A stretch of 63,996 bases of DNA, filler included, from Catajapyx aquilonaris (GCA_000934665.2; 3 parts of 3 records of this genome joined end to end with filler, not necessarily neighbours in it), one strand, 5' to 3'. Counted from the whole stretch's first letter, positions 1,580 to 41,800 are shown. Numbers and translations: made by a program. The notes: generated by a model not told the origin, from the letters alone.

Positions 1580-3173
1580 ATGTCGCTGACCCAGACCATC
1601 AAGAAGGAAGAGGAGGACGAGGAGATGACGACGGAGGAGACTTGGCTCCTGCGGGTCAAGGAGGAGACGCCTTCCTGCCTGGAGGAGGAGGACCCTGGCT
1701 TCTTTGAACGATATGCTGCAGGGGCTGGAGGTGTTGAAGGGAAGGAAGACCATGGCAGGGTGGTAAGCATGTAGATCACCTCAGTTTGTTAACGAGAGTG
1801 GAACCTGCTCTTCAGACGCTTTCATGCAAATGTAATATTCAGCCATCAGTGTCAAACGAAGAGGAGGCAGGTGGAAACGCGGCTGCAGACAGCGGTTTGA
1901 TCTTGACCATCAGTGTCAAGCCAGAGTCGGATGCAGCTCAAGGTCCGAGCACAACTTCGATTCTCAAGAGCTTTAGGATGAAGAAGCAGAACCATTCAGA
2001 TGAGAATCTGGAGAAAGGAAAGGTAAGGTCACGTAGCAATCGAAGCAGCTGTGGTGACAAGATCAATTGCCTTTTTAAAAATCGTACGCTATTTTTATTT
2101 TGTAGGCAAACACAAATCAAGAGAGCATGAAGACTTCTTTCCCTTGCCCCGTCGGTGGAATGGTGTTTGATGACGAAAAGGAGCCCAGAGCCCACAGACG
2201 CTCCCACAGTACTTTCCCATGTGACGTTTGTGGCAAGATTTGCAAGAATTTGGGAGCTCTGACCCTCCACAAGGAATCCCATCCGAGAGAGAAGCCCCAC
2301 AAGTGCACCAGATGCGACAAGTCCTTCTTTTCCGTGGTCAGGCTGCAGGCTCACGTTACCTCCCACGACGCTGGTGGTGACCTCGTGTGTCGCATTTGCA
2401 ACAAGTCCTACAGCAAAAGACGAGCATTTTTGGCACATGTGAGAATGCACGAGCGAATTCATGTTTGCAGAGTGTGTGACAAGGCATTTACAAGCCAATC
2501 TGTCTTAAAGAGGCATGCAAGTGCACATGTGGAGGAGAAACCCTTTGCTTGTGATGTTTGCAACAGTAGATTTACGTATATGGTGACTTTGAAACGTCAC
2601 AAGAAATTGATGCATGTTGAGCAGGGGCAATTATTAAAATGCAAATTCTGCCCCTCCACTTTTAAGGATGAGGAATACCTCCAGCGTCACTTGAAGAGGC
2701 ATACAGAAGCAGGCCCAGATAAAAGGTTCAGGTGCACTGTGTGTGGAAAGGCATTCACTAAGAAGAGTCATTTGGTAAGGCATGGTGCTACTCACACTGG
2801 GGAAAGGCCCTTTGAATGTGACGTGTGTGGTAAGGCTTTTCGTCAGGCAAGTAATTTGAAAGTGCATAAGGTGCTACACATGGAAGATGAATCTCACTTA
2901 TGCACAAAATGTGGGAAATGCTTCAAGTCGAGAAGTGCTCTTTACCAACACACAAGAAGGCATAAGATTCCACCGAAACTGGTCAAATGCCCCCATTGTG
3001 ATGAAGCTTTCAGCTGCAAGAGTAAAGTAGAGGACCACATTCGGCAGAGCCACACCGGGGAGAGGCCTTACACTTGCGACATTTGCGGGAAAAGATTTGC
3101 AAGCAAACAAAATATCAAGCAACATATCAAGATGGTTCACGGTAAGGAAAAGCCACTCAAATCCGGAAAATGA
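1580..3173 (+). CDS. C2H2 zinc-finger protein, cluster copy ZF1 (476 aa; 11 intact fingers plus 1 degenerate)
   Basis: Exons 1580-1762, 1843-2022, 2106-3173 joined by phase-0 GT-AG introns give an open frame. Tandem CxxC..HxxxH fingers with TGERP linkers and an acidic TEETWL N-terminus. Acceptor at 1571/1575 suggests an upstream exon (possible donor at 907). Confidence 0.9.
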
Positions 3174-4010
3174 GAAAAGCGTTTCCAGACTCACTCAGGA
3201 TCACACTGTCGCTCAATGTTTTATTTTTATGCATGGCCATTCCCATGTCTTTGTTGAGCCAAGCCTTTTGAGAGACATTGTAACCTTCTCAGATGCAAGA
3301 GGAAATTGCTGTGATTTCTATAAAAATTAAGTGTGTTTTGGGGGGGCGTTTCAGGAAGTGTTACAAAGGAAAATATGTGAGAGACATTCTGTATTATTCA
3401 TATCCAATCCTCTAATTGGAAATTAAAAATATATTTTCTCCAATTCCTTTTCGATATTTAAAACCTCATTTACAGCTTGAAGCCTGGTCGTTTTAATGAC
3501 TATAATATCTGAGCGAAATTTAATTCTTTAGATTGGATATGCAGCCACTATAAATTGGCCCTTCAAACATTAAAGGCATTTTATGGCTGAGAAACCTTCA
3601 TTATAATATCTTCATGATAATAATATATAACAAAAATAGACCGATATTACATAATGTGTAACTAATAAACTGTATCATTATTTCTGTTACATAATAGTTA
3701 TATAACTTATATGATTGCATAATGTGACCAAAGTGAAGATGAAGTTTTTCTTCCACCTAGCTGTGGGCGTTAATTACTATCAATCTCGTTGAACCATTCG
3801 CAATGCTTAATTGTAACCAGGAACATTAACCAGGCCATTAAATGTGCATAATAAATGTTTCGAACAGTCAGCATTATTATGTTTTAACTCATTTTAGGCA
3901 GAGAAAAACATGTCAAAATATTCGTGCAAGTCATTAGCCAACCTTGAAGCGATGGCGCCCTTTCTTTACGATAAGTACAGGCTGGAGAGAGTGTCAGTAC
4001 CGGTATCGAA

Positions 4011-4076
4011 GTAGCGCAGTGGTCTAGTGGTCAAGACTCTCTCTTCGTAACCTGAAGGTTGGAGGTTCGAATCCTT
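4011..4076 (+). repeat. Degenerate tRNA-derived Pol III head (SINE remnant)
   Basis: A-box-like tggtctagtgg and B-box ggttcgaatcc. No clean acceptor stem. Confidence 0.4.
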
Positions 4077-4790
4077 TTAAAAAAGACGTCCTTTCTTTTT
4101 ATCAACTTGTCATAGCTAAAATCCTGCTCTATTGAAAAAAATAGGCTACTTGTGGATCGCTGCGAGAGAAAATAATAAATTGATATGGGACACCGGCTTT
4201 GCCACATTGGGTCCCACATGGCTGCCATATTGGCGCCAGTCTACTTCTACACTTATTATCAACTTTGTCTTGCCGATCCACAGATATGGCCACGTCACGT
4301 GTATGAATCTGCATTGTCGGACTTGGATGTGTAGATTCTTGCAGGTGACAACTTCCGCATGATGAGTTTGTCAGCCATACCATGCCAGGCCTTTAATGTT
4401 TGAAGGGCCAATTTATTATTATAGTGGCAGCATGTACTACAATCTAATTAATTAAATTTTGCTCAGATATAGTCATTAAAACCTTTCATAACTTTCAACT
4501 GTAACTTTCAAACTGTAAATCAGGTTTTAAAGATTGGAAAAGAGTTGAGGAAATATATTTTTAATTTTCAATAGACCAGTACATACAAATAATAAATGCT
4601 TGTCTCTCGTACATTTCCTTAACATTTCCTCAAATGGCCCCAAATACATTTTGATTTTGATAGAAATTGCGGCACTTTCTTCTTGCGTCTGAGAACAAGG
4701 TTGTTGAGAGCCTTGGCACAGCAATGGCCGCACGTAACAATTAAACATTAAGTGACAGTTTCATCCTGAGGGAGTCCGGAAACCCTTTTC

Positions 4791-6335
4791 TCATTTGCTG
4801 GATTTGGGTGGCTTTTCCTTACCATGTACCCGATTGACATGCTTTCTGATATTTGGTCTGCCTGCAAATCTTTTCCCACACAAGTCACAAGCGTAAGGCC
4901 TCTCCCCAGTGTGCCTTTGCCGGATGTGGGCCTCTAGTTCATTCTTCTTTCTGAAAGACTTAGAACAATGGGGGCATTTGACCAGTTTTGGTGGAATCTT
5001 ATGACTCCTCATGTGATGGTAAAGAGCACTTCTCGACTTCAAGCATTCTCCGCAAACATGAGATTCTTCTTCCATGTGTAGCAACTTGTGCTCTTTCAAA
5101 TTACTTGCTTGACGAAAAGCCTTACCACACAAGTCACATTCAAAGGGCTTTTCCCCAGTGAGTAGCACCATGCCTCACTAAATTACTCTTCCAAGTGAAT
5201 GCCTTTCCGCACACAGTGCACTTGAACCGTTTCTCTGCATGTCTTTTCATGTGACGCTTGAGGTATTCCTCATTCTTAAAAGTGGAGGGGCAGAATTTGC
5301 ATTTTAATAGTGGTGTCTGCTCAGCATGATTCAATTTCTTGTGACGTTTCAAGGTGTTCACATACTTAAATCTATTGTTACAAACATCGCAAGCAAAGAG
5401 TTTCTCTTCAACATGTACACTTGCATGCCTCTTTAAGTGAGAGTCACTTATAAATGCCTTGTCGCACACTCTGCAAACATGCATTTGCTGGTGCACTTTT
5501 AGATGTGCCAAAAATGCTTTTCTTTTGCTGAAGGACTTGTTGCAAATGCGACACATGAGTTCACCACCAGCGTCATGGGAGGAAGAGTGAACCTGCAGCC
5601 TGACCTCGGAAAAGAAGGACTTGTCGCATCTGGTGCACTTGAGGGGCTTCTCTCCCGGATGGATGGCTTCCTTGTGGAGGCTCAGAGACCACCAAGTCTT
5701 GCATATCTTGCCACAAAGGTCACATGGAAAAGTATTTTGTTGAATGTGGGCATGTCTGTATGTGCCTCAGCCTTTATTTCCTCATCAAAAACCATTCCAC
5801 AGATCAGGCAAGGGAAAGAATAAGTCTGTGCCTACAAAACAATAGCAGCATAAAATATTTAACAATACAATTTTGCTTTGAATGCTATGTGACCCACCTT
5901 TTCTTTACCAGGACTCCCATCTTTATTGCCCTGCTTTGCCATCCTGAAACCCTTCAGAATATCCATTGTGCGAGGACCTTGCGCTGCTTCTGGCTCTGGC
6001 TTGACACTGATGGTCAAGATCAAACCACTGTCCGCAGCCGCATTTTCACCCGCATCCTCTGCCTCTTCTTCGTTTGCCACTGATGTCTGAAACGGTCTGA
6101 AATTAATCGCATGGACGAGTTAATGATCAGGACCTCAATGACCGGAGCTCGGATATCATCCGGGTATGATCTGATTCCACATCATGCCCAGCGGTACACT
6201 ATACAGGCTCCTTCATAATAACTAATGGAGTTAATCCACATGCTCACCTCTCCCTCACTGCCGCCTTCGTCTTCCATTTTCACATGGTCATCAACGCCTG
6301 AAACGTATTCCTCGATGAAGCCAGGCCCCTCTTCC
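4791..6335 (-). pseudogene. C2H2 zinc-finger pseudogene ZF2
   Basis: Paralogous exons 6248-~6335 (5'-truncated, no ATG), 5898-6086, 4791-5831. A +2 insertion near 5760 and a -2 deletion near 5160 relative to intact paralogs; one finger lacks CGK. Confidence 0.85.
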
Positions 6336-7002
6336 TAGAACCTAGAATAGTCAGATTTCTACCAGGGATACAGAAGTGGACATGAGGTCGTGGCGTCATT
6401 AATTATTCCAATTGCCCTCTTTTTCAACCAAGACCTGTCATAAAAATGTTGGCCGAGAGGGACTCGAAACACTTAGGTTCTGATCATGCACCGGTGTACT
6501 TCGCCAATAGACCAACTAATCGCATGAAGATTTTGTTACAAACATGTACGGCATATGCCAGGGAATTACGCAGTTATAGTAATAATGGCCAAGGTCTTAA
6601 CTTGAACGAGTACTTGAGTAACGTATTTCAATATCTTTAATCATCAGGATAGCATTGAGCAGTCATCCGATATCATGGTTATGATCTGATTCCACATGAA
6701 CCCTTTCAAACTGTAAATGAGGTTTTAAGGTTTGGAAAAGAGTTGAGGAAATACATTTTTAATTTTCAATAGGCAAGAATACATACAAATAATAATGCTT
6801 GTCTCTCGTACATTTCTTTAACATTTCCTCAAATGGCCCCAATTATATTTGATTTTCATAGAAATTACGGCACTTTTTTCTTGCGTTTGAGAACAATAAG
6901 GTTGAGATGTCTCTCAAAAGCCTTGGCACAACAATGGCCGCACGTCAGAATTAAACATTAAGTGACAGTTCGATCCTGAGGGAGTCTGGAAACACACTTT
7001 CC

Positions 7003-8328
7003 TCATTTGGTGGGTTTGGGTGGCTTTTCCTTACCATGTACCCGATTGACATGCTGCCTGATATTGTGTCTGCCTGCAAATCTTTTCCCGCAAACGTCAC
7101 AAGCGTAAGGCCTCTCCCCAGTGTGCCTCTGCCGGATGTGGGCCTCTAGTTCACTCTTCTTTCTGAAAGACTTAGAACAATGGGGGCATTTGACCAGTTT
7201 TGGTGAAATCTTATGACTCCTCGTGTGACGGTAGAGGGCACTTCTCGACTCCAAGCATTTCCCACACTCTCCACAAACATGAGATTCATCTTCCATGTGT
7301 AGCAACTTGTGCTGTTTCAAATTACTTGCCTGATGAAAAGCCTTCCCACACACGTCACATTCAAATTGTTTTTCCCCAGTGTGGGTAGACCCATGCCTTG
7401 CCAAACTACTCTTCCTAGTGAATGCCATTCCGCAGACAGTGCACCTGAACCTTCTCTCTGGGCCTGCCTCTGCATGTCTTTTCATGTGACGCTTGAGGTA
7501 TTCCTCATTCGTGAAAGTGGAGGGGCAGAATTGGCATTTTAATCGTTGTGTCTGCTCAGCATTCTTGTGACGGTTCAGAGACCACAAATTCTTGTATACC
7601 TTGCCACAAACGTCACACGGGAAAGTACTGTGGGCACATCTGTGGACTTTGGCCTTCTTTTCCTCATCAAAAACCATTCCACAGATGGGGCAAGGGAAAG
7701 AAGGCTGCACCTTCCTGCTCGTTTGATTAGCGCTTGCCTACAAATAAATAATAGCAATATAACATTTTTGAAAATACAATTCTGCTTTCAATGTTCTATG
7801 ACCCACCTTTCCTTTCTCCAGATTCCCATCTGAATGGCTCTTCTTTTCCATCCTGAAACTCTTCAGAATTTCCATTGTGCTAGGACCTTTAACTGCTTCT
7901 GGCTCCGGCTTGACACTGATGGTCAATATCAAACCACTGTCCGCAGCTGTGTTTTCACCCGCACCCTCTTCCTCCTGGTCGTGTCCTTCCAACGGCTGAA
8001 ATTAAATGCATATGGATAAGTTAATCGTCACATTAAGGACTGAAATGAGCAATCCTCTGATATTGTGGTTATGATCTGATCCCACATCATGCTCTCTCAT
8101 TAACCTTACTGATCAACAAAGAAAGATAATCCAGATGCTTACCACCCTGCCGTCGTCTTCCTTCCCTTCAACTCCTCCAGCCCCTGAAGCGTATCGTTCA
8201 AAGAGGCCAGTGTCCTCCTCCTCCAGGCAGGAAGGCGTCTCCTCCTTGATCCGCAGGAGCCAAGTCTCCTCCGTCGTCACCTCCTCGTCCTCCGCTTCCT
8301 TCTTGATGGTCGTCGGCATGGTCGACAT
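7003..8328 (-). CDS. C2H2 zinc-finger protein ZF3 (369 aa; in-frame deletion of four internal fingers)
   Basis: Exons 8143-8328, 7807-7995, 7003-7737 with phase-0 introns and open frame. Finger 2 is fused to the linker before finger 7 (RHKN|AEQ). Confidence 0.8.
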
Positions 8329-9170
8329 GTTCCTGGCTGCGGTCAACAATAATCAGTCATTAAGCAACAGAGTCATGTCGTCATGACCATTTCACACCCA
8401 TTCAAATCCAATAAATTTGTAAGCAGGCCTGTAGGCCAAAGCTTGTTTGTTTGTCCAGAGGTTAGGTCACCCAGCCAACTGGTTGCTGCCTCAGGTCGTT
8501 ACCTTCCCCGTCTTCCCACGCCTTCCTATTCGACTTCCGCCCACTAAAATATCACTAAAATATCACCAAAAATCGACACCCAATTAACAAAAACAATGAT
8601 TAATAATTACCTGAAGCGCGTTGATGGAACAAAAAGAGGAACGCCCGTCGCCACTCATTTGTTCTGTCAAGTAGCGAAAAGTAACCGGCCGCATTCCGAT
8701 GGCTGCAAGAACAGGGACATAAGCGCTATTAAAGGTAGCTGTTACTGTAACCGCTACTCGCTACTCGCTATTCATTTTTTTTTTTTTTTTCCTGCCTTAG
8801 GAAACTGCCTTAGGAAAGGTTCCTTTGTTCAGCCTCCCAGTGTGCAAGGTCATTAATGAGAAGTTTTGCCATGCCTAGCCCCACCAAGGATCTTACCCAT
8901 TTGGCCCTTTTTGTGGAGATACATGCATGGTGAAAAGATCCGGCATCACCAGCACCTGCGGGATAAGATTGCAACAGTAACGCCAGACATGCCTGAAAGG
9001 GTTTGGCACGACACCTATTAGCGTATTTAAATTTATCAAGTGACAAATGGAGCTCATATCGAAACAAATTATGGTAATGCCAAAACTTTAGACGTGACAT
9101 TATATGGTCGCACATAAGAATTAAACACTAAGCTACAGTTTGATACTGGGTGAGTCTCAAAACACTTTTC

Positions 9171-10118
9171 TCATTTGCTAGTTTCGGGTGGATTTTCCTG
9201 ACCATGAACTACCATGACATGCTCTCTGACATTACGTCTGCCTGCAAATTTTGTCCCGCAGACGTCACAAGCATAAGGCCTCTCCCCAGTGTGACTTCGC
9301 CGAATGTGGGCCTCTCTGCTTCACACTTGCTTTGGAAAGACTTAGAACAATGGGGCCATTTGACCAGTTTTGGTGGAATCTTATGACTCCTCATGTGACG
9401 AGAAAGAGCATCTCTGGACTTGAAGCATCTCCCACACTCTCCACAAACATGAGATTCATCTTCCATGTGTAGCAACTCATGCCTCTTCAAATGCCTTGTT
9501 GCACACCCTGCAAACATGAATTCGCTGGTGCACTTTTGCATGTGCCAAAAATGTTTTTATTTTGCTGTAGGACTTGTGGCAAACGTGACACACGAGTTCA
9601 CCACCAGCGTCATGGGAGGAAGCGTGAAGCTGCAGGTTGATCTCTGAGAAGAAGGACTTGTCGCATCTGGTGCACTTGTGGGGCTTCTCTCCTGGATGGG
9701 ATTCCTTATGTCTGATCAGAGACCACCAAGTCTTGCATATCTTGCCACAAACATCACATGGAAAAGTATTTTGTTGAGTGTGGGCACGTCTGTGTGCCTT
9801 AGCCTTTATTTCCTCATCAAAAACCATTCCACAGACCAGGCAAGGGAAAGAATAAGTCTGTGCCTACAAAACAATAGCAGCATAAAATATTTAACAATCC
9901 AATTTTGCTTTGAATGCTACGTGACCCACCTTTCCCTTCTCCAGTCTATCATCTGAATGGTTCTGCTTGTCCATCCTGAAACTCTTCAGAATTTCCATTG
10001 TGGTAGAACCTTTCGCTGTCTCTGGCTCTGGCTTGACACTGATGGTCAAGATCAAACCACTGTCCGCAGCCGTGTTTTCACCCGCACGCTCTGCCTCCCC
10101 TTCGTTTGCCACTGACGG
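9171..10118 (-). pseudogene. C2H2 zinc-finger pseudogene ZF4
   Basis: Exon 2 (9930-10118) and exon 3 (from 9863) present, exon 1 and promoter absent. Frameshifting deletion near 9480 (AFEEA*), CPHC mutated to WPHC, further frameshift near 9315. Confidence 0.85.
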
Positions 10119-10327
10119 CTGAAATTAATCGCCATTCTCCATCTCTCCATCACTGCTACTCGCTGATGTAACAAAACATAATGGAAACAATTACAATGTG
10201 ATAAGCATACATTGTTTACTTTATTATATCAGAACATATTAGCGATAATTTTGCTGTTGTAAAATGCTATTCACAATGGTCATATTATACTATCACATAA
10301 TAGTTATGTAACTTTTATGTAACTATA

Positions 10328-10507
10328 CAGTAGACTCCGGATATTACAGATTTCAAGGGACTACAACTTAAATCAGTCTGCTATAGCCGAGGTCTGTTGT
10401 AGCCCAATACAAAGCCCATGTATGGAAGTATGGCGGGACAAGCCTTTTGGATCCGCTACAACCTGGATCCTGTCATAGCCGAAGGTTGTTATATCCGGAG
10501 TCAGCTG
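10328..10507. mobile_element. Short Tc1/mariner (Tigger/pogo-like) MITE
   Basis: Inverted ends cagtagactccggatat / atatccggagtcagctg. Truncated paralogous copy at about 19871-19905. Confidence 0.5.
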
Positions 10508-10908
10508 TCTATGATATAGTTTATGTGTTACATATTACGTAATATAGGCATATTTGTTACATATGTAATCTAATCTCCTAATTTAATTTCGCGCATATAC
10601 AGTATAGTCATGAAAACCACCAGGATTTATAGATTGGAAAAAAGTTAAGGATTTTAAAAAAAAACCAATAGAAGATTGCATAAATAATAAAGCTTGTCTA
10701 ACCCATTTCCTTCGTAACATTCCCTCAAATGGCAACCCAAATACATTTGATTTCAATAGAAACTGCAGCATTATTTTTTCTTGCTTCTGTCTGAGAAGTT
10801 CACAATGTCTCTCAAAAGCCTTGGCACAACAATGAGAATGGTCGCACATAATAATTAATCACTAAGCTGCAGTTTGATCCTGAGTGAGTCTCGAAACACA
10901 CACTTTCC

Positions 10909-12560
10909 TCATTTGTTGGTTTTGAGTGGCTTTTTTTCACTGTGTAATGCCTTGATATGCTCTCGGAGATGATTTTTGCCTGCAAATCTTTTCCCGCAAA
11001 TGTCACAAGCGTAAGGCCTCTCCCCAGTGTGCCTCTGCCGAATGTGGTCCTCTACTTCATTCTTGTATCTGAAAGCCTTAGAACAATGGGGACATTCGAT
11101 CAAGCATTTGGCAGGATTTGGGGGAATCTTATGTTTGCTCACATGACAGTGAAGGGCATACTTCGACTTCAAGCATTCCCCACATTCTCTGCAAACATGA
11201 GATTCATCTTCCACGTGTAGCAGCTTGTGCTGTTTCAAATTACTTGCCCTAAGAAAAGCCCTACCACACACGTCACATTCAAAGGGCTTTTCCCCAGTGT
11301 GTGTCAAGTCATGCCTTACCAAACTACCCTTTGTAGTGAATGCCTTTCCGCAGACAGTGCAACTGAACCTTTTCTCTGAGCCTGCCTCCGTATGCCTCTT
11401 CAAGTGAAGCATGAGCTTTTCCTCATCCTCAAAAGTGGAGGGGCAGAATTTGCATTTTAATAATTGCTTCTGCTCTACATGCTTCAATTTCTTGTGATGT
11501 TTCAAGTACCTCATAGACTTAAATCTAGTGTTGCAAACATCGCAAGCAAAAGTTTTGTCTTTCACATGTACACTTTCATGTGTCTTCAACACAGATTCAC
11601 TTATAAATGCCTTGTCGCACACTCTGCAAACATAAATTCGCTGGTGGACTTTCGCATGAGCCATAAATGCGTTTTTTTTGCCAAAGGATGTGTTGCAAAT
11701 GTGACACACAAGTTTTCCACCAGCATCATGGGAGGAAGCGTGAAGCTGCAGCCTGACCTCGGAAAAGAATGACTTGTCACATCTGGTGCACTTGTGAGGC
11801 TTCTCTCCCGGATGGGCTTCCTTGTGGCGGCTCAGAGACCACCAGGTCTTGAATATCTTGCCACAAACATCACACGGGAAAGGATTTTCTTCAGTGTGGG
11901 CACATCTGTGGGCCTTGGACTTCTTTTCCTCGTCAAAACCCTTTCCGCAGACCGGGCAAGGGAAGGAAGTCTGTGTCTAAAATAGAAGCATAAAATATTT
12001 ATCAATACAATTTTGCTTTGAATGCTACGTGACCAACCTTTCCCTTCTCCATACTATCATCTGAATGGTTCTGCTTGGCCAGACTTAATAAGCTCTTCAG
12101 AATTCCCGTTGTGGTAGAACTTTGCACTGTGTCTGGCTCCGGTTTGACGCTGACAGTCAAGATCAACCCACTGTCCGCAGCCACGTTTTCACCCGCATCC
12201 TCTGCCTCCTCTTCGTTTGCCACTGACGTCTGAAATTAATCGCATGGACGAGTTAATCATCAGGACAGCAATGAGCAGTCCTCTGATATGATGGCCATGA
12301 TCTCCACGTGTACTTTGGAGGCACCTCGCACCTTCATAATAACTAATTGAATTAATCCACATGCTCACCTCTCCCTCGCTGCCGCCTTCGTCTTCCATTT
12401 TCACATGGTCATCAACGCCTGAAACGTATTCCTCGATGAAGCCAGGCCCCTCCTCCTCCTGGTCAGGCGTCTCCTCCTTGATCCGCAAGAGCCAAGTCTC
12501 CTCCGTCGTCATCTCCTCGTCCTCCTCCGCCTCCTTCTTGATGGTCTGGGTCAGCGACAT
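10909..12560 (-). CDS. C2H2 zinc-finger protein ZF5 (483 aa; 12 fingers)
   Basis: Exons 12369-12560, 12038-12229, 10909-11976 with phase-0 GT-AG introns and fully open frame. Confidence 0.9.
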
Positions 12561-12698
12561 GGCCTTCCTCAGGGGCGTTCCACTCGCCTTCCCTCTCTTC
12601 ACCAACCCTTTCCAAGAACCTCGCCAAAAACAGTGCGAATCAGAGGGAATCCGAAGAGGAAAAAGAGAGAGAAGCGAAGGAGAATTATTAGTCAGAGG

Positions 12699-12740
12699 GA
12701 CGCCATCTTGGATTTTGGACAGGGTGCATTCGGACGCCTG
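12699..12740 (-). promoter_or_regulatory. Conserved cluster promoter element with YY1/Pho-like CAAGATGGCG core
   Basis: caggcgtccgaatgcacc-N-aaatccaagatggcgtc about 140 bp upstream of the ZF5 ATG; recurs at 13105, 15361 and 19529. Confidence 0.65.
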
Positions 12741-13104
12741 GAATAAAGAAGAACGGACAGCGGGAGGTGGATATACGCTATCGAATGTAGCTGCTACCTC
12801 AATCGCTGCTACTCGCTGATGGAACAAACTGCAATGAAAACTATATATCATGTAATATTGTCAGCATATTAGACACATATCATGTTATATATTCAGAATG
12901 TTGGTTACGTATCATGTAATATCAGCATATTTTTGTTATCCAGGTTGTTAAACAACGTATAATATTGCAATCAGCAAAATAGCACTTTATCGTGTCGCGA
13001 ATAACGTACAACGGTAGCGGTTACTTAAGTAACGGTTCCATAAATAGCTGTTAGTTAAGTAAAGGATCCGGGGATAGCGCTTAGACACATCGACGTATTG
13101 TGGT

Positions 13105-13146
13105 CAGGCGTCCGAATGCACCCAACCTGAAATCCAAGATGGCGTC
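13105..13146 (+). promoter_or_regulatory. Conserved cluster promoter element (divergent partner of the ZF5 copy)
   Basis: Same motif on the opposite strand, about 80 bp before the donor AAG|GTGAGT at 13224/13225. Confidence 0.65.
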
Positions 13147-13449
13147 GATTATTCTCGATTATTGAAGTGCGGCGTCGTAATTTAATCATTTGCGAGCTAA
13201 TTAAAGGTTGGAATTGGAAGCAAGGTGAGTGGACAGGTTAAATGGGACGATGGAAGGACATTTTGGGCCAAATTTTGGGTGGGGAATCGGAAGGAAGGTC
13301 CCGCTGGAGCTGATAAGAACACTTGTCATGGAGCTAGAAAAGGATTGGGCATTGTGGCCATTTTTAAAAATGCAAAACTGTGGGGGTTATGTAAGATTAT
13401 TGATATCCATATGAGCATACAGATTTATAACATACATTTTTACAGGACA

Positions 13450-14752
13450 ATGGAAGTTATGGTCAAGCCTGATGAAGCAGCGGACAGTGTAGCGACTGAG
13501 GAGACATGGTTAGAGTTGAAGCAAGCCACTTTCGACAATGATTCGACTGTTACTACATGGACACTACAGGAGGTCAAGCAGGAGGAAGAAACTATCTTGC
13601 CCGATGTGGAGGTTATGGACGTTGCCGACGATCCTTCAGTCGCTGGTGCACGCAACTTGCAAAGCCACATGATAGTTCATGAAAAAGACAGGTCATACTA
13701 TTGCGATGTGTGCCGGAAAAGGTTTGCTGTGCAGGCGACGCACATGGAAGAACAGCCATTCCATTGCCAGCACTGCGGTAAAACGCTTAAAGCCGCAGGT
13801 AATGTCATTCAGACATACGTACTGCAGAAAATGTTTAGGCCACTTCTGAGCTCATTTTTATTTAGAGATGAAGTTATGCCGACATGCGATTTTGTCGTAC
13901 ACAATGTGCACCAATTAAAATACTTCATGTATTTCAGACTCCGCCTTGACAGACAGAAATACAGTCAGAGAATCAGAAGAAAGAAGCAAGGAAAAGCGAC
14001 AACGCAGAGAGGTTTCATCATCAAGCGATGAAGATGACAACGACGACAATGAGCTTCCGCCTCCACCTTCCACTTCGTTTACTCATGTACCTGTCTCCGT
14101 TCAAGCTGCATCAAGCTGCAGTTGTGCCCAAATGATTACCCAAATGGCAAAGCAGCAAGAAGGTTGGTAAATTGATATTGTGAGCATCAATGGCTATCAT
14201 TAATTATCAATTACTATTTTGCTTTACACAGAGTTCCATAATATTTTGCTGAGGCAGCAGACGCAATTGATAATCGGTCAAAATAGAATTCAGGATACTC
14301 TGGATTTCATACTCCAGAAAATAGGGGGGAACGACCAAGAAGGATTATGGAATGGAAGCGACAACAGCGTCCTTTGAAACCTTCCTCTTTCAACGGAGGA
14401 AGCGCTGGAGGAACTGGAGGAAAAGCTGGTGGTTGAAGACGCCAGGACCTGTCTCCTGAAATCGTTGCGGACATTAGGAGGATCGAACGTGAAGGAGGTG
14501 GTCAAGACACTAATGAAATTCATGATGAACGACCACCTGGCAGCCACGTTCAGCTGGGAGGGAAGAAAAGGGAAAAGACCATTCGTAAAACTAGGCTTGT
14601 GCAATATTGTCTACGAAGCAGTGCGAGGAAATGTCCGCACCAAGGAAGCCACGAATAAGGAAGTGGAACAGGAAGTGAAAATCTGGCTGCGTCATGCGCC
14701 TGCCAGGTCAGAAAAGAAAAAAGCAGACGCAGGAATTAAGTACGTACAGTAA
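13450..14752 (+). pseudogene. TEETWL module + degenerate zinc fingers + DUF4806 (BEN-like) gene with one in-frame TGA
   Basis: Exons 13450-13798, 13938-14162, 14232-14752 join in frame (phase-1 introns). C-terminus LPLSTEEALEELEEKL...LGGSNVKEVV...FSWEGRKGKRPF...IWLRHAPAR fits the DUF4806 pattern. Single TGA at 14375-14377. Confidence 0.65.
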
Positions 14753-15360
14753 AATAATCAGTCATAAACAATATGCGACAAAAAAAATTGGCTGTCGTCA
14801 GAAAAAGGAAAATTAAAAGTTCGGGACGGAGCGTCTGCTGCGGTGTGGCCATTTCTAAAATATATTTTTAAAAAACACAAGTTTGCGCTTTCAATTCATT
14901 TTTTGATGTTGATATTTTATATGTAAAAATCATTATGTACGTGGAATAAATACATTTTCATTGAAACATCCTTTCAATCTTGTGTACAGTACTTACTGTG
15001 CATATTACTATTGTTGCATATTTTAAATACCTGATATATTTTTTTCTGACATACATTTTCACTACATTGCCTGGTTAACATAATTTTACCTATGAAACTT
15101 TTAAAAAATTTAAATTTAAATTTTTAAATAAAACATTTTGCCAATTAAATTCAAATATTTTTAAATTTAAATTTTAAATAAAACATTTGCCAATGAAATT
15201 AAATTATTTTTAAATATAAATTTTAAATAAAATATTTTGCCAATTAAAATATTGTCCATTTACAAAAATAGCACCTTAACGAGTCGCGAATAACGTTCAA
15301 CATTAACAGTTAGTAAAGTAACGGTTGCGGGAATAGCGCTTAGGCACGTGGCTTTGTGGT

Positions 15361-15396
15361 CAGGCGTCCGAATGCACCTAAAATCCAAGATGGCGT
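15361..15396 (+). promoter_or_regulatory. Conserved cluster promoter element
   Basis: caggcgtccgaatgcacctaaaatccaagatggcgt upstream of a 5'UTR exon ending at 15475 (AAG|GTGAGT). Confidence 0.65.
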
Positions 15397-15687
15397 CGTT
15401 TGCAATCAATTAATGATCTGATGGTTCATAATTAAATTAATTGCGAGCTAATTAAAGGTTGGAATCGGAAACAAGGTGAGTGGACATGTTAAGTGAAATT
15501 GTGTTAAGGAAATTGTGCCAAATTTTGGCGAAGGAAAGGCCAGAAAGGGCCGGTTGTATGCGATGAAGTATTGGAGCTAGAAAAATATTTGGCAATTTTG
15601 GAATTATTTTGATGTAAAACTGTGGGTCATGGCAACTTGTTGATGCAAATGTGAGCATGCAGACTGATAATATGCATTTTCAGAGCA

Positions 15688-16715
15688 ATGGAAGGGAAAG
15701 TCAAGACTGAGGTGGAGGAAGCAGCAGACAGTGTTGATACAGCAGAGGAGACGTGGTTGCTCCAAGTGAAGCAGGAGGCCACTTTGTACATGGACAATAA
15801 GTCTACCAGTGTTACGGAAGCCAAACATGACGTCAAGGAGGAGGAGGAAGAAATGGTCTTGCCCAAGAAGCTGCAGTCAGTTGACAATGCCAATGATCCT
15901 TTACGTCCTGGTACATGCAACGTTCAGAGACATAACGATTGCGGGTAAGTATTAGGTACGCAGTAACTGAATTTGTAGTAAACCGTGCGCCACTTGCAGA
16001 TGCCGCCGGAACTGTCTCGCTGACGTACCCACGTACAAACAGAAAGCTATCCTCAGAAAGTTCAAGCAGCTGCAAAAGAGAGGGAAAGTTGCCCAGGACA
16101 TCTACCTTCAACGCTGCATCACTCCAACACCAATACTACGCCGTCGCAAGCGTGACACTGGTGACAGTCAACTAAAACGCTCCCCAAGGACTGCTACGTA
16201 CATCTACACTGTCCCGCTTGGTACGTATTAATTACTTCAATACTTGTTGATATGTGATGAGTGTACCCAAAACAGGTGCGACAGTACGTGTCGTGTGTTT
16301 GAAGGCGTTTTGCTCCCTCCACGATGTGCGTCTTGGACGGATGAGGAGGCTGGCTCTTCTAGCGAGCAGGAAGCAGGTGCCGGAAGAGCTGCGCGGGAAG
16401 CATGGAAATAACCCTCGACAGACGGACCCTGCAAAACTCCAGCTGATCACAGACCACATCAGGTCTCTTCCTTTCAATCCGCACAAGGACAACAAAACCA
16501 AGAGACACCTGACTACAGTCCGAAGTGTCAAACAGATGTACGAGTTGTTCCTACAGAAGTACGACATCAAGGCTTATAATAAATGGAAGGTGTCGGGAAT
16601 TCCCATTGACAAGGCCCGTGGATTGGTCACTTACAGAATTTATTTGCATCAATTTCACAACACCTGCAGCAACTATACTTTTGGGAAGACCAGTGCGGAA
16701 CTTGTGACGAGTTGA
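15688..16715 (+). CDS. 305-aa fusion protein: EETWL acidic module + transposase-derived (Sola-like) Cys-rich/DNA-binding region, no catalytic domain
   Basis: Exons 15688-15944, 16000-16220, 16276-16715 (two 55-nt GT-AG introns) total 918 nt with an open frame. Motifs CGCRRNC, QDIYL, VCLKAFCSLH, LRGKHGN, HIRSLP, SVKQMYELF, YRIY..F...NYTF. Confidence 0.75.
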
Positions 16716-17045
16716 AGTCCTCTTTGGAATATACAGTGCATAATGTGCAAGCCGATCTTTTCCCTGGAACTATTGCATGTGTTGATTATTTTTTTTACAT
16801 TACTACATTATTATAATTATAATATCAAAGAGAGAATTGCATATATATAAATAATAAAACTTGTCTCTCGTAATACATTTCCTTCATAGCATTTCCTCAA
16901 ATGGCCCCAAATATCTTTAATTTTGAAAGAAATTACAGGACTTTTTCTTGCAACTGAGAAGGTTCAGATGTCGCGCAAAAGTCTTCGCACAACAATGTAG
17001 TACATAGGAATGGTCTGCTATCACAATGTAAAACAAAGTGACAGT

Positions 17046-18473
17046 TTAATCCTGAGCTAGTTGTTTCTCATTTGCTGGATTTGAGTGGCTTCTTCTCGCA
17101 TGACGGTAAAGGGCATGTCGCGACTTCAAGCATTTCCCACACTCTCCACAAACATGAGATTCATCTTCCATGTGTAGCAACTTGTGCTCCTTCAAATTAC
17201 CCACCCAACGAAAAGCCTTACCACACACGTCACATTCAAAGGGCCTTTCCCCAGTGTGAATAGTGCCATGGGTTAACAAATTACCCTTCGTAGCGAATGC
17301 CTTTCCACAGACAGTGCAACTGAAACTTCTCTCTCGGAGTTCCTTTTCATGCCTCTGCAAGTGAAGCTTGAGGTATTCCTCTCTCTTGAAAGTGGAGGGG
17401 CAGAATTTGCATTTTAATAATTGCGTCTGCTCAGCATGCTTCAATATCTTGTGACGTTCCAAGGTCCTCATAGACTTGAATCTACTGTTGCAAACATCGC
17501 AAGCAATGAGTTTCTCTTTCACATGTACACTTGCATGCCTCTTCAACCCAAAGTCAGATATAAATGCCTTGTCGCACACTCCGCAAACATGAATTCGCTG
17601 GTGCAGTATCCCATGTGCCAAAAATGTTTTTAATTTGCTGTAGGACTTGTTGCAAACGTGACACACAAGTTCACCACCAGCGTCATGGGAGGAAGCGTGA
17701 AGCTGCAGCCTGTGCTCTGAGAAGAAGGACTCGTCGCATCTGGTGCACTTGTGGGGCTTCTCTCCCGAATGGGATTCCTTGTGGCGGCTCAGAGCTTCAA
17801 AAGTCTTGCAAGTCTTGCCACACACATCACATGGGAAAGTATTACGCTCAGTGTGGGTATTTGCCTAAAAAATATTCATTATAAGATTTTTTGTTTAAAG
17901 ACAACTTTTCACCATAGCTACTTTCAGTGACATGCGACCCACCTTTCCCTTCTCCAGACTATCATCTGAATGGCTCTTCTTTTCCACCCTGAAGCTCTTT
18001 AGAATATCCGTTGTGCAGGGACCTTGGACTGCTTCTGGCTCTGGCTTGACATTGACCGTCAAGATCAAACCACTGTCCGCCGCCGCATTTTCACCCGCAT
18101 CCTCTGCCTCCTCTTCGTTTGCCACTGACGGCTGAAATTAATCGCATGGACAAGTTAACCACCAGGACCACAATGAGCAGTCCTCTGATATCATGGATAT
18201 GATCTGATTCCACATCATGCCCAGTCGTATACTATACAGGCTCCTTCATGATTAACCAATGGAGATAATCCACATGCTTACCACACTGCCGTCCTCTTCC
18301 TTCACTTCCGTACTGTTAGCGCCTGAAGCATATCTTTCAAAGAAGCCAGTGTCCTCCTCCTCCAGGCAGGAAGGCGTCTCCTCCTTGATCCGCAGGTGCC
18401 AAGTCTCCTCCGTCGTCATCTCCTCGTCCTCATCCTCCGCTTCCTTCTTGATGGTCATCGGCAGAGACGACAT
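17046..18473 (-). CDS. C2H2 zinc-finger protein ZF8 (399 aa; 9 fingers, lacks the first and last two)
   Basis: Exons 18282-18473, 17943-18131, 17046-17864 with phase-0 introns and open frame. Its own upstream region is replaced by the truncated ZF9 copy. Confidence 0.8.
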
Positions 18474-18562
18474 GGTCCTGGCTGCGGTTAAAGATCAATC
18501 ATTTTCGTTCACTTGCAACAGATGCGGGGGCATAAAGTTATGGCCAACATTTACTACGGTAC

Positions 18563-19399
18563 CCAGCCTGAGCTCTGAGAAGAAGGACTTGTCGCATCTG
18601 GGGCACTTGTGGGGCTTCTCACCTGGATGGGCTTCCTTGTGGGTGGTCAGAGTTCCCAAAGTCTTGCATATCTTGCCACAAAGGTCACACGGGAAAGCAT
18701 TTTGTTCAGTGTGGGCACGTCTGTGGGCCTTGAATTCCTTTTCCTGGTGGAATCCCTTTCCACAGACCAGGCAAGGGAAAGGAGTCTGTGCCTACAAAAA
18801 AATAGAGGTATAAAATATTTAACAAGGACATTTTGCTTTGAATGCTATGTGACCCACCTTTTCTTTATCAGAACTCCCATCTGAATGGTCCTGCTTTTCC
18901 ATCCTGAAACTCTTCAGAATTTCTGTTGCGCAAGGACCTCGGACTGCTTCTGGCTCTGGCTTGACCCTGACAGTCGAGATCAAACCACTGTCCGCAGCCG
19001 CATTTCCACCCGCACACACTGGCTCCTCTTTGTCGTCCACTGACGGCTGAAATTGAACGCGTTGATGGGTTAATCAGCAGGACCACAATCCTACTAGTAC
19101 AACTGCTATATGATCTGACTCCCACCATGCTCCTCTCGTCTACCTTAGAGGCTCCTTCATGATTAACTAATGGAGTTAATCCACATGCTCACCTCTCCCT
19201 CACTGCCGCCTTCGTCTTCCATTTTCACATGGTCATCAACGCCTGAAACGTATTCCTCGATGAAGCCAGGCGTCTCCTCCTCCTGGTCAGGCGTCTCCTC
19301 CTTGATCCTCAGGAGCCAAGTCTCCTCCGTCGTCATCTCCTCCGTCGTCATCTCCTCCTCGTCCTCCGCTTCCTTCTTGATGGTCTGGGTCAGCGACAT
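18563..19399 (-). pseudogene. 3'-truncated zinc-finger copy ZF9 (or 5' part of a ZF9-ZF8 read-through gene)
   Basis: Exons 19193-19399 (EEMTT duplicated), 18858-19046 and exon 3 from 18791, which breaks inside finger 3 at about 18564. Confidence 0.75.
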
Positions 19400-19528: not shown

Positions 19529-19571
19529 GACGCCATCTTGGATTTTGGGAAAGGGTGCATTCGGACGCCTG
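19529..19571 (-). promoter_or_regulatory. Conserved cluster promoter element upstream of ZF9
   Basis: gacgccatcttggatttt...gggtgcattcggacgcctg, same as 12699-12740. Confidence 0.65.
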
Positions 19572-19910
19572 GAAAAGGAAGAACAGACAGCGGGAGGTGC
19601 ATATGCGCTATTTAAGTATAACTGCTACCAACATCACGGCTACTCGCCGCTTTGACAAAATATAATGGAAACTATTGCAATGTGATGGACATACATTGTT
19701 TACCATATTGTATCAGAATATAATTAATTAGGCATTCAGAATAATTAACTAATCGAATAATTATTTCCGATATTATCGGAAATAATTATTTGACTGTTAC
19801 GAAATGTTATTTGCACTGGTCGCATTATACAATCATGTAATAGTCACGTTAACTTTTATGTAACTATATACAGCAGACTCCGAATATAACAGACTTCAAT
19901 GGACTATAGC

Positions 19911-20127
19911 CCAACGAAAAGCCTTCCCACACACGTCACATTCAAAGGGCCTTTCCCCAGTGTGAATAGTGCCATGGGTTAACAAATTACCCTTCGTAGC
20001 GAATGCCTTTCCGCACACAGTGCATCTGAAACTTCTCTCTCGGAGTTCCTTTTCATGCCTCTGCAAGTGATGAAGCTTGAGGTATTCCTCTCTCTTGAAA
20101 GTGGAGGGGCAGAATTTTCATTTTAAT
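19911..20127 (-). pseudogene. Orphan zinc-finger exon fragment
   Basis: Near-identical to 17204-17419 (fingers 7-9 region of ZF8) with a 3-nt insertion and no flanking exons. Confidence 0.8.
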
Positions 20128-21471: not shown

Positions 21472-21571
21472 NNNNNNNNNNNNNNNNNNNNNNNNNNNNN
21501 NNNNNNNNNNNNNNNTTAATTAATTAANNNNNNNNNNNNNNNNNNNNNNNNNNNNNNNNNNNNNNNNNNNN
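21472..21571. other. Assembly gap (N-run with TTAATTAATTAA linker)
   Basis: 100-bp N block with a central six-frame stop linker. Confidence 0.97.
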
Positions 21572-23695: not shown

Positions 23696-23968
23696 ACCGA
23701 AGCAGGTTGGCATAGTGGATAAGGCGTCCGACTGCTAATCGGGAGGTCCAGGGTTCGAATCCCGGGGCCGGCAATTCTGACCGTGGTTTTCTGTGGTTTC
23801 CCACGGTCCTTCCAGGGAAATTCCGGAGTTGTTCCCGTAATTAATAGGCCACAGCCGCTTCCTTCCATCCCTATCCTATCCCAAAGAGCACAGTAAAATG
23901 AAAAGCAAAGAGTTCCAGGCAAAACAAACTTCCCCCGTAACGAGCCGATGGCTGATAACGGGGTATGA

Positions 23969-24046: not shown

Positions 24047-24232
24047 AGATACTGCTGGAGAATAGGATACAGCAGTGTTTTGAAATGTGTTGGGACATGC
24101 CCAGCACCAAATGTGTTCTATGGTCCATGAAATTTGGTATTCGAAACTTTTGGGTTTCAGAGTTTTGGATAAGAGATTGTGTACGGTCTGTATTTTTAAG
24201 TAAAATTATATTGACACTGGGTCTTATTTCAG

Positions 24233-27200
24233 GTGGTCACGCGAGTCCCAAAGAGCACTCGAGCTGAAATGGAAGATGCCGTGGAAGCCGCAAAAGCAGC
24301 CTTTAAGAAGTGGTCAAAGGCCTCAATACTCACTCGCCAGCAAGTGATGTTCAAGTACCAGAATATCATTCGGGCTAATATGGTATGGCTGTGTCCTGCA
24401 TTAGTGACAGTTTTATTTTGTGATAGGGAATAATGGTGTGTACCTTGGTTCCTAACTCATTATAATAGTGTATAATATTTTTTAGTAATGTGGAGTTATT
24501 TGAGCTGTGAAGTTAAAATTAATGATGTTCCTACAGTTATTTACAAATAATTAATGAAACAAACCATGTGGTTATACACAAAGGCTATTCTTCACATGGT
24601 TCTTGGACTATATTTTATATGAAAATTTAAGTTGATGGTAGGCATGCAGTACCTGTCACGGTTTGATTTGATTCCTTTGTTCAATGCACTTGGTGCAATT
24701 TCTTGAAACCCTCTCAATTCTGCTAAAATAATTGTTCTCTGGATGTTGGTCCTAATCAGCCCCATGACACGTTCCACGAATACGGTAGGGTAACTAATTA
24801 CTGTGTCTTGGCCGTGGTGAAATTTGGCGCTGGCGGCACTACATCGTTCGCTATATCGCCATCTTGTCAAGGTGCATCTGGTGGTAGGTACCGGGTAGTC
24901 TGCCGCGATTGGCTCAATCTTTCTTTGCTTCCGCAGACTTACCACTTGAGTGCACCTTGATGGTATAGTGAACGATGCCAGCGCCAAATTTCAGCCTGGC
25001 CGAGACACAGGAGTTAGCCTACCGTATCCATACGGCTAGGGGGGAAGTGACAGAGGGCTGGTCCTAATGATTAGGATCACTGAGCAGACCACCAATACAA
25101 ATTTGAGCTCCCCACTAAAAATAAATTTATCCTTTTTAGGCACACCAAAATTCCTTACAGCAGTATATTTACAGCATTAATGTAGGAACTGGTTACCTGC
25201 ATGCATAAAGTAGCAGCAGCATATAGAAGGAAGTTTTTACTGAAGATGGGATGGGTGAAAGGTTCTGAATTCTTGTAATGGTGTTGCCAAAGAAGATTTA
25301 GTACCCACACACAGGGGGAAAAAAGGCAGTCATTTCTGTGAACATCTCAATTTCTTTGAAAGGAGAAATTCTAGCTGAAAGTCCTGCCCATCCATCTCTG
25401 TTTTTTACAAGTGCCCTGTAAAATGTCACAAAGATGGATTCTGGTCTAGATCAGTTTTCATTTAGGCAGACAAATTTTAACAAAGTTAACAATTCCGAAG
25501 GAGTAAGAAATTCAGAATGAAATTCTACATCATTGTCTTTAGGTACCAAAGTGGCCTAATCTAATGGTTAGGCATTCTAGCTGAAATTATTTGGGAATCC
25601 GTGGATTTTAAGCCTGCTGCCAACCAGCTTTCCATGTTTTGTTTTTCCCAGTCAATTCCAGGGTGTTTTTTGTTCTTTCTCAGGGCAAATTGCTGCTTCC
25701 TTCCTCCTCTGCCCTGCTCCTCTACTATGTCGTGCAAATTGGCTATGTCCTTCCTACCGCTTTGTCATTTTGTGGTCCCAATTATCTGGTGCAACACTGG
25801 AAGGCTGTTGGAGCCATAATGCCTGTTCCCTATAAAGTAACCAGCCAACCAATTGTGTTGGAGTTCTAGTTTGTACCTGTGACATTAACTCTCTCTCTCT
25901 CTCTGCCGCTAGATTTAACCTTGACTGTTTTTAAATTGCAATTATTAGGGAATGGGGTCCTATGTGAGCCTTATTTCCACGCGAGTTAAATAGAATCTGC
26001 CATTGCCGATGGCTCCCCGTGCTAGACCTCCGCCATCTCTTGGTGCCCGCTACTTTCCAAGGACATGCTTTAAATCCCTTGGCGTGGGATCGGCCAGCCA
26101 CCTGGCGTTTAAATGGGAACCTGCTGCACATACACCATGCTCATCCATGGTCATCATCCATGCGCAATAATTCAAAAATTGTTATAAGCGAATTATTGTC
26201 TACCACACTAACTCCTTTATTGTGAAAGAAGTAAAAATGAGCTTGTATTTATTAAGTCTTTAGAGATAATTTAATTAGCTTTATAAGGGACCTTTCACAG
26301 CCTAAAAACTCTTCTCGGAATGCTCCCAAGGTGGCCGTACGACCTGACCACACGAGATTTTTTGGGTGAATTGTGCATGTTTTGTGGGTGAATATGCCGC
26401 ATCCATTTACACCTGATAGAAGGTCCGCATAAAATTAGCGAAATTTCGTGTACCATGCGTCTGGTACGCAGTGGTGAAAGGGTTAAAGGACTAGGATTTT
26501 ATATCTACCTAATTAAGCATAAAATATATAAAAATCATAATTAGCCAGATACTAAATGCATGATGATGTCTGAATTTATTAAGAACAAATGTGTAAAAAA
26601 AAGCTGCTGAAAAAATATTAATAATATGAATTCACTGCTGCTGCAATAATGTTTTTATACTAAAAACTAGGTGCATGTGCCGGGTTGTTGTTTTAAGGTT
26701 TAAAAAAATTAATTTCATTTCAAAGTAATGTACTACTTACTTGTTCTGTGTAACCAGGGTGGCGTAATACTTAACACAATATCTTTCTTTCTTCCATAAG
26801 AGTCATTCAAATGAAAACAAATTGCTGAATGAGTGTCTCGTGGGATTTTCTACACAAAATAAAGGTGGTACCGATGTAGTATTATAACTCACTGACAAGT
26901 GGAGATTCGATGACGTGTCCCAGTGGCAGTATGCCTTATTTGTTCATGAACCCCCTTAAAAAGACCGCCCAGTCAGATATGGAACCAACGACCATTGAAC
27001 AGCTAGTGGTAATTCATTTTTGAACCGTGGAAGGTGTTGGGAGTACAGAAATCCATTGTTGTATGAGTACTATGTACAAAAACTGTGTCTTTGTCACTTG
27101 TTAGAGCTTGGAGCAAGCCCTGGCCTGGAATCACCAGTCAACGATGACTACCCCTTTTTGAACCACTTGCTCCAGGCTTTAATACATGACAAAGACATGC

Positions 27201-41521: not shown

Positions 41522-41800
41522 ACGAAGCAGGTTGGCATAGTGGATAAGGCGTCCGACTGCTAATCGGGAGGTCCTGGGTTCGAATCCCGGGGCCGGCAAC
41601 TCCGACCATGGTTTTCTGTGGTTTCCCACGGTCCTTCCAGGTAAATTCCGGAGTTGCTTCCGTAATTAATAGGCCACAGCTGCTTCCTTCCGTCCCTGTC
41701 CTGTCCCAAAGAGCACAGTAAAATGAAAGCAAAGAGTTCAGGCAAAACAAAATTCCCCCCTAAAGAGCCGATGGCTGATAACAGGGTATGAATTATTATT
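41522..41800 (+). mobile_element. tRNA-derived SINE type B
   Basis: Near-identical to 23696-23970. Confidence 0.85.

Follow-up and report, generated by a model that had tools for sequence, protein, structure and literature searches.

An acidic, SUMO-consensus-bearing N-terminal head in a C2H2 zinc-finger gene cluster of Catajapyx aquilonaris

Described effector heads and the head of this cluster

Apart from those of tetrapods, flies and carps, large zinc-finger families mostly have, to our knowledge, no known effector domain through which to act on chromatin. Here we describe a 63,996-base stretch of DNA from Catajapyx aquilonaris (GCA_000934665.2; three parts joined end to end with filler, and called the window below), which holds between positions 1580 and 19399 a cluster of C2H2 finger genes that begin with a short acidic peptide containing EETW, here called the head. 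The head carries repeated matches to the SUMO-acceptor consensus (psi-K-x-E), and we propose, with a probability of roughly 0.5, that it is a lineage-specific N-terminal module of a C2H2 birth-and-death cluster, which would be SUMOylated on chromatin and would recruit silencing readers.

Among described systems, the FiNZ-ZNF genes resemble this cluster in several respects. As presented by Wells 2023 (PMC10547256), they start with a short, glutamate-rich N-terminus without similarity to known domains, which sits on its own exon before the finger array, and they expand in tandem while the start of the coding sequence stays highly conserved across paralogues. FiNZ differs in that it is 28 residues long, is encoded by one exon and is described there as unique to cyprinids, whereas the head studied here comprises ~62 + 62 residues on two exons of an arthropod-type genome; given the reported restriction of FiNZ to cyprinids and the arthropod type of this genome, we regard FiNZ as an analogue and not as a relative. 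Searches with the head profile gave no hits, hence no detectable similarity to FiNZ, in libraries for which the presence of FiNZ is unconfirmed. The main text of the FiNZ paper does not mention SUMO (PMC10547256).

KRAB-ZNF genes and KRABINER, as reported by Cosby et al. (10.1101/2020.05.07.082677), likewise carry their effector on small 5′ exons spliced to variable DNA-binding parts. In that account no host domain is joined to transposase DNA-binding domains more often than KRAB, and the capture of its exons in front of transposon-derived domains may be mirrored by one gene of the present window (G15, below). KRAB acts through a SUMOylated adaptor, KAP1/TRIM28, whereas here the head itself bears the SUMO consensus sites and has neither a KRAB fold nor a KRAB match in Pfam. 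A further point of comparison is ZAD, a folded, zinc-binding, four-cysteine dimerisation domain. Insect ZAD-ZNF genes are like this cluster in that a lineage-specific N-terminal partner precedes C2H2 arrays in clustered, fast-evolving genes (Chung 2007 and Kasinathan 2020, as cited in PMC10547256); the head differs in having no such cysteines, no PF07776 match and no confident fold.

The mechanism that we propose for the head is the one described for Drosophila factors of the PIWI-interacting RNA (piRNA) pathway and their “SUMO spray”, in which modification of chromatin-bound proteins at common SUMO-consensus sites recruits SetDB1/Eggless or Sov (PMC9406493). According to the same source, recruitment of SetDB1 at transposable elements needs SUMOylation of KAP1 in human and of Su(var)2-10 in Drosophila, and Panoramix needs SUMOylation to bind Sov. 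These factors differ from the proteins considered here in being piRNA-guided or E3 ligases and not sequence-specific finger proteins, and they have no sequence relation to the head.

Occurrence, SUMO-consensus sites and conservation of the head

We translated the window in six frames and searched all frames for EETW. The motif occurred seven times, in every case inside an acidic, Met-initiated first coding exon between 1580 and 19399: at 1580-1762(+), 8143-8328(-), 12369-12560(-), 18282-18473(-) and 19193-19399(-), which are the heads of the finger genes that we call ZFa to ZFe, and in the exons starting at 13450(+) and 15688(+), which belong to two loci called G13 and G15. By comparison, 200 block shuffles that preserved local base composition contained a mean of 0.09 EETW (maximum 2), and the 11 alternative orderings of E, E, T and W were each present 0-1 times in the real window. 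The five ZFa-ZFe heads are close, recent paralogues and the copies are therefore not independent, while the G13 and G15 heads are diverged. When a profile of all seven heads was run against 2208 open reading frames (ORFs) of the window, the only match beyond the heads was a truncated remnant at 6185-6334(-). The conserved core of the finger-gene heads consists of T-I-K-K-E, an acidic run and T-T-E-E-T-W-L-L-R-I-K-E-E-T-P; the heads are strongly acidic overall (net charge -10 to -20) and hold 0-1 cysteine, and W, LL, F and Y are conserved in them. An original prediction, made from the sequence, had placed EETW(L/H)L followed by psi-K-x-E in every first exon. This stands as regards acidic EETW exons (7/7), but not for the full motif, as G13 reads EETWLE and then LKQA.

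To score psi-K-x-E we used [VILMF]-K-x-[ED], and as a null we shuffled each head 10,000 times. The seven heads contain 18 sites compared with 1.95 from the shuffles, none of which (0/10,000) attained 18; because five of the heads are paralogous, the fair count is three lineages, each with P ~0.0005-0.02. Every head has two or three sites, and one more (VKPE) lies in exon 2. Site 1 (IKKE, VKPD or VKTE), with the acidic run after it, is found in all seven heads, site 2, directly after EETWLL, in six (the exception being G13, with its LKQA), and site 3 in five, while VKPE is kept in all seven second exons of the cluster. The abundance of these sites, noted in the original prediction, is thus enriched beyond composition and positionally conserved.

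[IV]KxE with a following proline is the synergy-control form of the SUMO site, and a site with an acidic run after it, as at site 1, is the acidic-patch-dependent form. Extended forms of the SUMO site are named in PMC3395311. Proline occurs within three residues of [IV]KxE in 5/7 heads and 6/7 second exons; in the heads, those of the five finger genes, the site concerned is site 2, and in the second exons it is VKPE. As for SUMO-interacting motifs (SIMs), the SIMa, SIMb and SIMr patterns as given in PMC3395311 find no match in any of the 14 peptides from heads and second exons. These peptides hold only loose psi-psi-x-psi cores (LLRI, LLRV or LLQV in 5/7 heads, ILT(I/V) in 6/7 second exons), each directly preceding a psi-K-x-E site, and a T-T-E-E CK2-type site lies upstream in 5/7 heads.

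Among the five paralogues, the core from TIKKE to KEETP (93 columns) has a mean pairwise nucleotide identity of 0.96 (minimum 0.95), compared with 0.73 for the 3′ half of the head exon, 0.68 for intron 1, 0.80 for exon 2 and 0.40-0.54 upstream of the ATG, which supports the view of the head as a module in the original prediction: it is discrete and far better conserved than its flanks. Synonymous divergence (dS) is 0.05-0.24 in the core versus 0.26-0.95 elsewhere, and is so low in the core that selection on the peptide cannot be separated from gene conversion or from constraint at the nucleotide level. Judging from the sequences, the diverged heads offer a better argument for protein-level constraint than paralogue identity does: those of G13 and G15 are only 17% and 31% identical to that of ZFa, yet they retain T-EETW-L..K and the first psi-K-x-E.

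That the two kinds of head belong together was examined with a profile of the five finger-gene heads. Among the 2208 window ORFs the G15 head came next, scoring 16.8 bits (E 6.7e-4) where the best of 4000 shuffled heads reached 13.1 bits; the G13 head scored 5.7 bits, which alone is not significant. In the reverse direction, a profile of the diverged heads recovered the five finger-gene heads at 20.6, 18.0, 15.7, 13.1 and 9.3 bits. On these scores, the finger-gene and diverged heads are related beyond composition.

AlphaFold, given the seven-sequence alignment, returned a mean predicted local distance difference test (pLDDT) score of 56.6, with weak helices at residues 19-29 (EETWLLRVKEE) and 41-49 only, and as modelled the head is best described as largely disordered with one short amphipathic helix over EETWLLR(I/V)KEE. 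Pfam found no family in the heads, and across 145 ORFs of at least 55 residues in the first 20.2 kb (1-20.2 kb) it found only C2H2-type families and DUF4806; KRAB (PF01352), ZAD (PF07776) and BTB (PF00651), which the original prediction had reported as not visible, were indeed not found in this set, and neither was SCAN (PF02023). The head profile matched nothing in PDB at E<=10, and the seven-head profile matched none of 1.84 billion protein representatives at E<=0.001. As members of the family score ~100 bits against the profile, close relatives are truly absent from that library, while kin at a distance like that of G15 (17 bits) could not have passed. A search for longer proteins with exon 1 as query returned 73 candidates, of which none reached E<=0.01; 484 pattern matches to the head in metagenome contigs yielded no confirmed case, Atlas recognition of the head (1489) fell below the useful level and gave unnamed matches only, and nowhere in the literature searched were zinc-finger genes of arthropods described as having an acidic head with SUMO motifs. 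The expectation that the motif matches no known domain was therefore borne out in Pfam, PDB and the protein library, and by these searches the head sequence family is new, without a detectable relative.

The style of the head is another matter. Of 109 unrelated zinc-finger proteins whose first finger is preceded by 30 residues or more, 22 carry at least three psi-K-x-E sites in that region, so an acidic, psi-K-x-E-rich style is recurrent even though the sequence family is new here. N-termini of zinc-finger proteins from pipefish, locust, gecko and grouper are alike in being acidic, and in them (I/V)K(x)E recurs, frequently with a P behind it and a W nearby (IKKEEDDFTW, WIKTEP, IKEEQEELW); they differ in being longer and repetitive, and the likeness is at the motif level only, with hhalign of the heads against the locust, pipefish and grouper proteins giving probabilities of 0.2-1.5%. 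Of the claim that the head is a lineage-specific tag, the novelty of the sequence is upheld, but not the exclusiveness of its style.

Gene structures of the cluster and of two diverged loci

Each finger gene that bears a head, five in all, consists of three coding exons, with conserved phase-0 splicing and GT-AG sites, such that the acidic N-terminal module occupies two head exons of its own (~62 residues each) upstream of the finger exon. Exon 1 encodes 61-69 residues and ends in a phase-0 donor, GTAAGC or GTGAGC; intron 1 measures 80-150 bp; exon 2 encodes 60-64 residues, has a phase-0 junction on either side and carries the sequence ..ADSGLILT(I/V)SVKPEPE..; and exon 3 holds the whole C2H2 array. 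The cluster contains seven copies of exon 2, which points to two more genes, ZF2, having lost half of exon 1, and ZF4, having lost all of it. The exons, in order along the window, are:

1580-1762 (+), ZFa head exon, 61 residues, with IKKE, EETWLL and VKEE; phase-0 donor GTAAGC at 1763
1843-2022 (+), ZFa second head exon, 60 residues, with LILTISVKPE
2106-3173 (+), ZFa finger exon, 11 C2H2 fingers
4791-5766 (-), ZF2 finger exon, frameshifted (frames 5140-5766 and 4791-5174)
5898-6086 (-), ZF2 second head exon
6185-6334 (-), ZF2 head-exon remnant, 3′ half only (profile positions 38-66, 35.5 bits)
7003-7737 (-), ZFb finger exon, 7 fingers, with fingers 2-6 deleted internally
7807-7995 (-), ZFb second head exon
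8143-8328 (-), ZFb head exon, 62 residues
9209-10118 (-), ZF4, with second head exon at 9930-10118 and finger fragments at 9477-9863 and 9209-9556; head exon not found by the profile
10909-11976 (-), ZFc finger exon, 12 fingers
12038-12229 (-), ZFc second head exon
12369-12560 (-), ZFc head exon, 64 residues, with IKKE, EETWLL, IKEE and VKME
17046-17864 (-), ZFd finger exon, C-terminally truncated, 9 fingers
17943-18131 (-), ZFd second head exon
18282-18473 (-), ZFd head exon, 64 residues, with EETWHL
18495-18791 (-), ZFe finger exon, 2 fingers
18858-19046 (-), ZFe second head exon
19193-19399 (-), ZFe head exon, 69 residues, with EEMTT duplicated

The finger arrays descend from a 12-finger ancestor, and only ZFc (12 fingers) and ZFa (11) are full-length, while ZFb has 7, ZFd 9 and ZFe 2, the last because its array breaks off abruptly at the 5′ boundary of ZFd. 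The cluster is a birth-and-death cluster and not a row of intact genes. At its edge we also observed a lone finger fragment, 19896-20117(-), that is near-identical to ZFd fingers 7-8 and constitutes a further broken copy. In addition, a block of ~155 bp with 75-83% identity lies just 3′ of the stop in five finger genes (3251-3403, 4580-4695, 6779-6936, 10680-10834 and 16841-16997), and is probably a shared 3′ untranslated region.

The diverged heads lie in loci with other tails. The 5′ region of G13 (12976-13472), which takes in the promoter side as well as the first part of the head, is duplicated in G15 at 15265-15710 with 72-84% identity. Four genes (ZFc, ZFe, G13 and G15) have upstream of them a 42-bp motif (..CCGAATGCACC..AAATCCAAGATGGCGTC, with AAATCCAAGATGGCGTC at its end) that always points the same way as the gene; it lies 137-146 bp from ZFc and ZFe, and its core resembles the YY1/Pho-type ATGGCG site. 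The shared 5′ region and the 42-bp motif indicate that a promoter-plus-head cassette was copied. The other three head-bearing genes have no copy of the motif within 500 bp and show an apparent splice acceptor just before the ATG. The features of the two loci, together with the motif copies, are:

12699-12740 (-), 42-bp upstream motif, at -146 of ZFc
19529-19571 (-), 42-bp upstream motif of ZFe
13105-13146 (+), 42-bp upstream motif of G13
15361-15397 (+), 42-bp upstream motif of G15
12976-13472 (+), G13 5′ cassette, promoter side and head-exon start
13450-13798 (+), G13 first exon, diverged head (VKPD, EETWLE, VKQE) and degenerate finger remnant; candidate donor at 13799
13938-14377 (+), G13 candidate middle exons 13938-14162 and 14232-14374, ending at an in-frame TGA (14375-14377)
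14378-14752 (+), DUF4806 (PF16064, BEN-like) unit behind the stop; Pfam 32.1 bits, cut-off 25
15688-15944 (+), G15 head exon, with VKTE, EETWLL, VKQE, VKEE and DPL; donor GTAAGT
16000-16220 (+), G15 exon 2, Cys/Arg-rich first part of the unassigned tail, after a 55-bp GT-AG intron
16276-16715 (+), G15 exon 3, rest of the tail up to the stop; the intron before it is again of 55 bp and GT-AG

In G13, the finger remnant of the first exon matches zf-H2C2_2 at 38.8 bits, under the cut-off of 40, and from there candidate splice sites that agree with one another lead to 13938 and 14232. The frame from the head to DUF4806 is then broken by the TGA at 14375-14377, which no plausible splice removes: the GT sites before it are weak, and the one in phase (14369) leaves an intron of 30 bp. 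DUF4806 is described as a subtype of the BEN DNA-binding domain (10.1101/2023.12.06.570431; PMC10789644), so the BEN-like label given to this partner in the original prediction is fair, but the proposed fusion with the head is interrupted in the assembly.

G15, by contrast with this broken locus, is intact as modelled (15688-16715), with 305 codons in three exons, canonical in-frame splicing and no internal stop. Its tail matched no Pfam family, and PDB returned chance-level rows only (E 0.19 or worse). Atlas placed the tail at 0.95 with unnamed eukaryote clusters (arthropods, oomycetes), the nearest named family being DUF7869 at 0.77, which is a lead only and on which the literature searched held nothing; 136 pattern matches to the tail in metagenome contigs yielded no confirmed case, and a single-sequence AlphaFold model was unusable (pLDDT 40.6). 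Since the tail matches no family, its description as transposase-derived, as first put forward, comes down to one weak Atlas lead; a transposon origin is plausible. The idea that one head is reused on three different DNA-binding domains holds insofar as a related head fronts a non-finger tail in the intact G15 model; it does not extend to the BEN-like unit, which lies behind a stop, nor to the third partner, whose identity as a DNA-binding or transposase part is putative.

Readings of the head and other features of the window

In the silencing reading that we prefer, the head would serve as a common effector handle carried to its targets by variable DNA-binding parts. Its lysines would become SUMO-modified once the protein sits on chromatin, and the SUMO marks, with no KAP1-like adaptor in between, may in turn recruit SUMO-reading silencers of the kind that act at insect transposons (SetDB1/Eggless-Windei, Sov). 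As shown above, the diverged head with its promoter side was duplicated, such that one copy now fronts the decayed finger/BEN-like locus G13 and the other the intact G15. Both the repressor action and the SUMO modification of the head are matters that we only infer. Several observations weigh against this reading: of the finger genes with a head, three out of five are truncated, and the G13 locus is broken too, so that the cluster is partly decaying; the five finger-gene heads are recent paralogues, whose low core dS would fit gene conversion or nucleotide constraint equally well; acidic N-termini rich in psi-K-x-E are common enough in unrelated zinc-finger proteins (the 22/109 above) that they may be a general property; and activation domains, too, look like acidic stretches that contain W, L and F.

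This last point underlies the main rival, in which the head is an acidic activation domain whose W-L-L (with F-F/Y) contacts co-activators and whose psi-K-x-E sites act as SUMO synergy-control brakes, making the proteins activators or switchable factors. The composition of the head (its strong negative charge and its conserved W, LL, F and Y) fits this equally well as it fits silencing. The sole predicted structure, a short amphipathic helix over EETWLLRVKEE, also speaks for it, as does the proline that accompanies [IV]KxE in 5/7 heads and 6/7 second exons, and synergy-limiting SUMO sites are documented in activation domains such as that of Nurr1 (PMC3554661). What makes us consider it unlikely nonetheless is that the tested heads of tandemly expanding finger families (KRAB, FiNZ) repress, as reported by Wells 2023 (PMC10547256), and that the density and positional conservation of the SUMO sites exceed what a single brake would need.

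The lysines could also be secondary to a docking or self-association motif with a protein as its partner, either a SIM beside acidic and CK2-type threonines or a dimerisation element like ZAD or SCAN. Such a role would be in keeping with the loose psi-psi-x-psi cores that stand before psi-K-x-E in 5/7 heads and 6/7 second exons (there as ILT(I/V)), and with the T-T-E-E CK2-type site upstream in 5/7 heads; the three published SIM patterns, as listed in PMC3395311, however match 0/14 peptides, ZFd (WHL) and G13 (WLE) lack an intact LL pair, AlphaFold predicts no dimerisation-capable fold, and there are no cysteines for a ZAD-like zinc site, so that we think this improbable. We hold it just as doubtful that the head has no dedicated function, being a leader homogenised by tandem duplication or gene conversion in which the sites are a by-product of K/E-rich sequence and the non-finger loci are accidental junctions. 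A core dS of 0.05-0.24, where neighbouring parts reach 0.6-0.9, is typical of conversion tracts, and several genes are truncated or frameshifted, with a stop in G13. Yet shuffles that preserve composition give 1.95 sites versus 18, the heads of G13 and G15, otherwise only 17-31% identical to that of ZFa and with DNA that aligns no further than the start-codon region, still have T-EETW-L..K and the first psi-K-x-E, and G15 keeps an open frame of 305 codons across two introns.

A wider version of the silencing reading, which we regard as speculative and rather unlikely, is that an early-branching arthropod lineage has its own genome-wide effector system, in which a poly-SUMOylated, disordered head would recruit SetDB1- or Mi-2-type silencers directly and a portable promoter-plus-head cassette would have been placed repeatedly before new DNA-binding parts, including transposon-derived ones. 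If true, this would be a third independent invention of the logic of KRAB and FiNZ, with a different biochemical link. G15 may represent an arthropod case of effector-exon capture by a foreign DNA-binding part, comparable with the KRAB-transposase fusions of vertebrates. Because the head is short, with a handful of conserved lysines and one tryptophan, it is tractable for asking whether direct SUMO modification replaces the KRAB-KAP1 link.

Outside the cluster, the window includes four runs of 44 N (176 N in total) within 21472-21571 and 43042-43141, which are assembly gaps. Two 199-codon ORFs overlap on opposite strands at 272-875, in a GC-richer stretch, without a Pfam or Rfam match. Two tRNA matches above the Rfam gathering score, at 23702-23773(+) (35.2 bits) and 41527-41598(+) (39.7 bits), could be genes or tRNA-derived repeats. 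The ORFs at 44328-45417(-) and 54036-54575(+) show, by eye only, Tc1/mariner-like C-terminal motifs (..PYTPDLLPCDFFLF.. and ..PYSPILAPTDFQLF..), and are likely transposase remnants. A multi-exon gene for an ALDH6A1-type methylmalonate-semialdehyde dehydrogenase, with introns of ~60-70 bp, spans 24230-34072(+) and was used to place the genome: its closest proteins, taken with intron lengths of 55-70 bp, point to an arthropod. Over ~490 aligned residues, its protein is 78-79% identical to those of hexapods and crustaceans versus ~74% for molluscs and ticks, the margins being small, and one exon is 85-87% identical to the mayfly, springtail, cockroach and cricket proteins.

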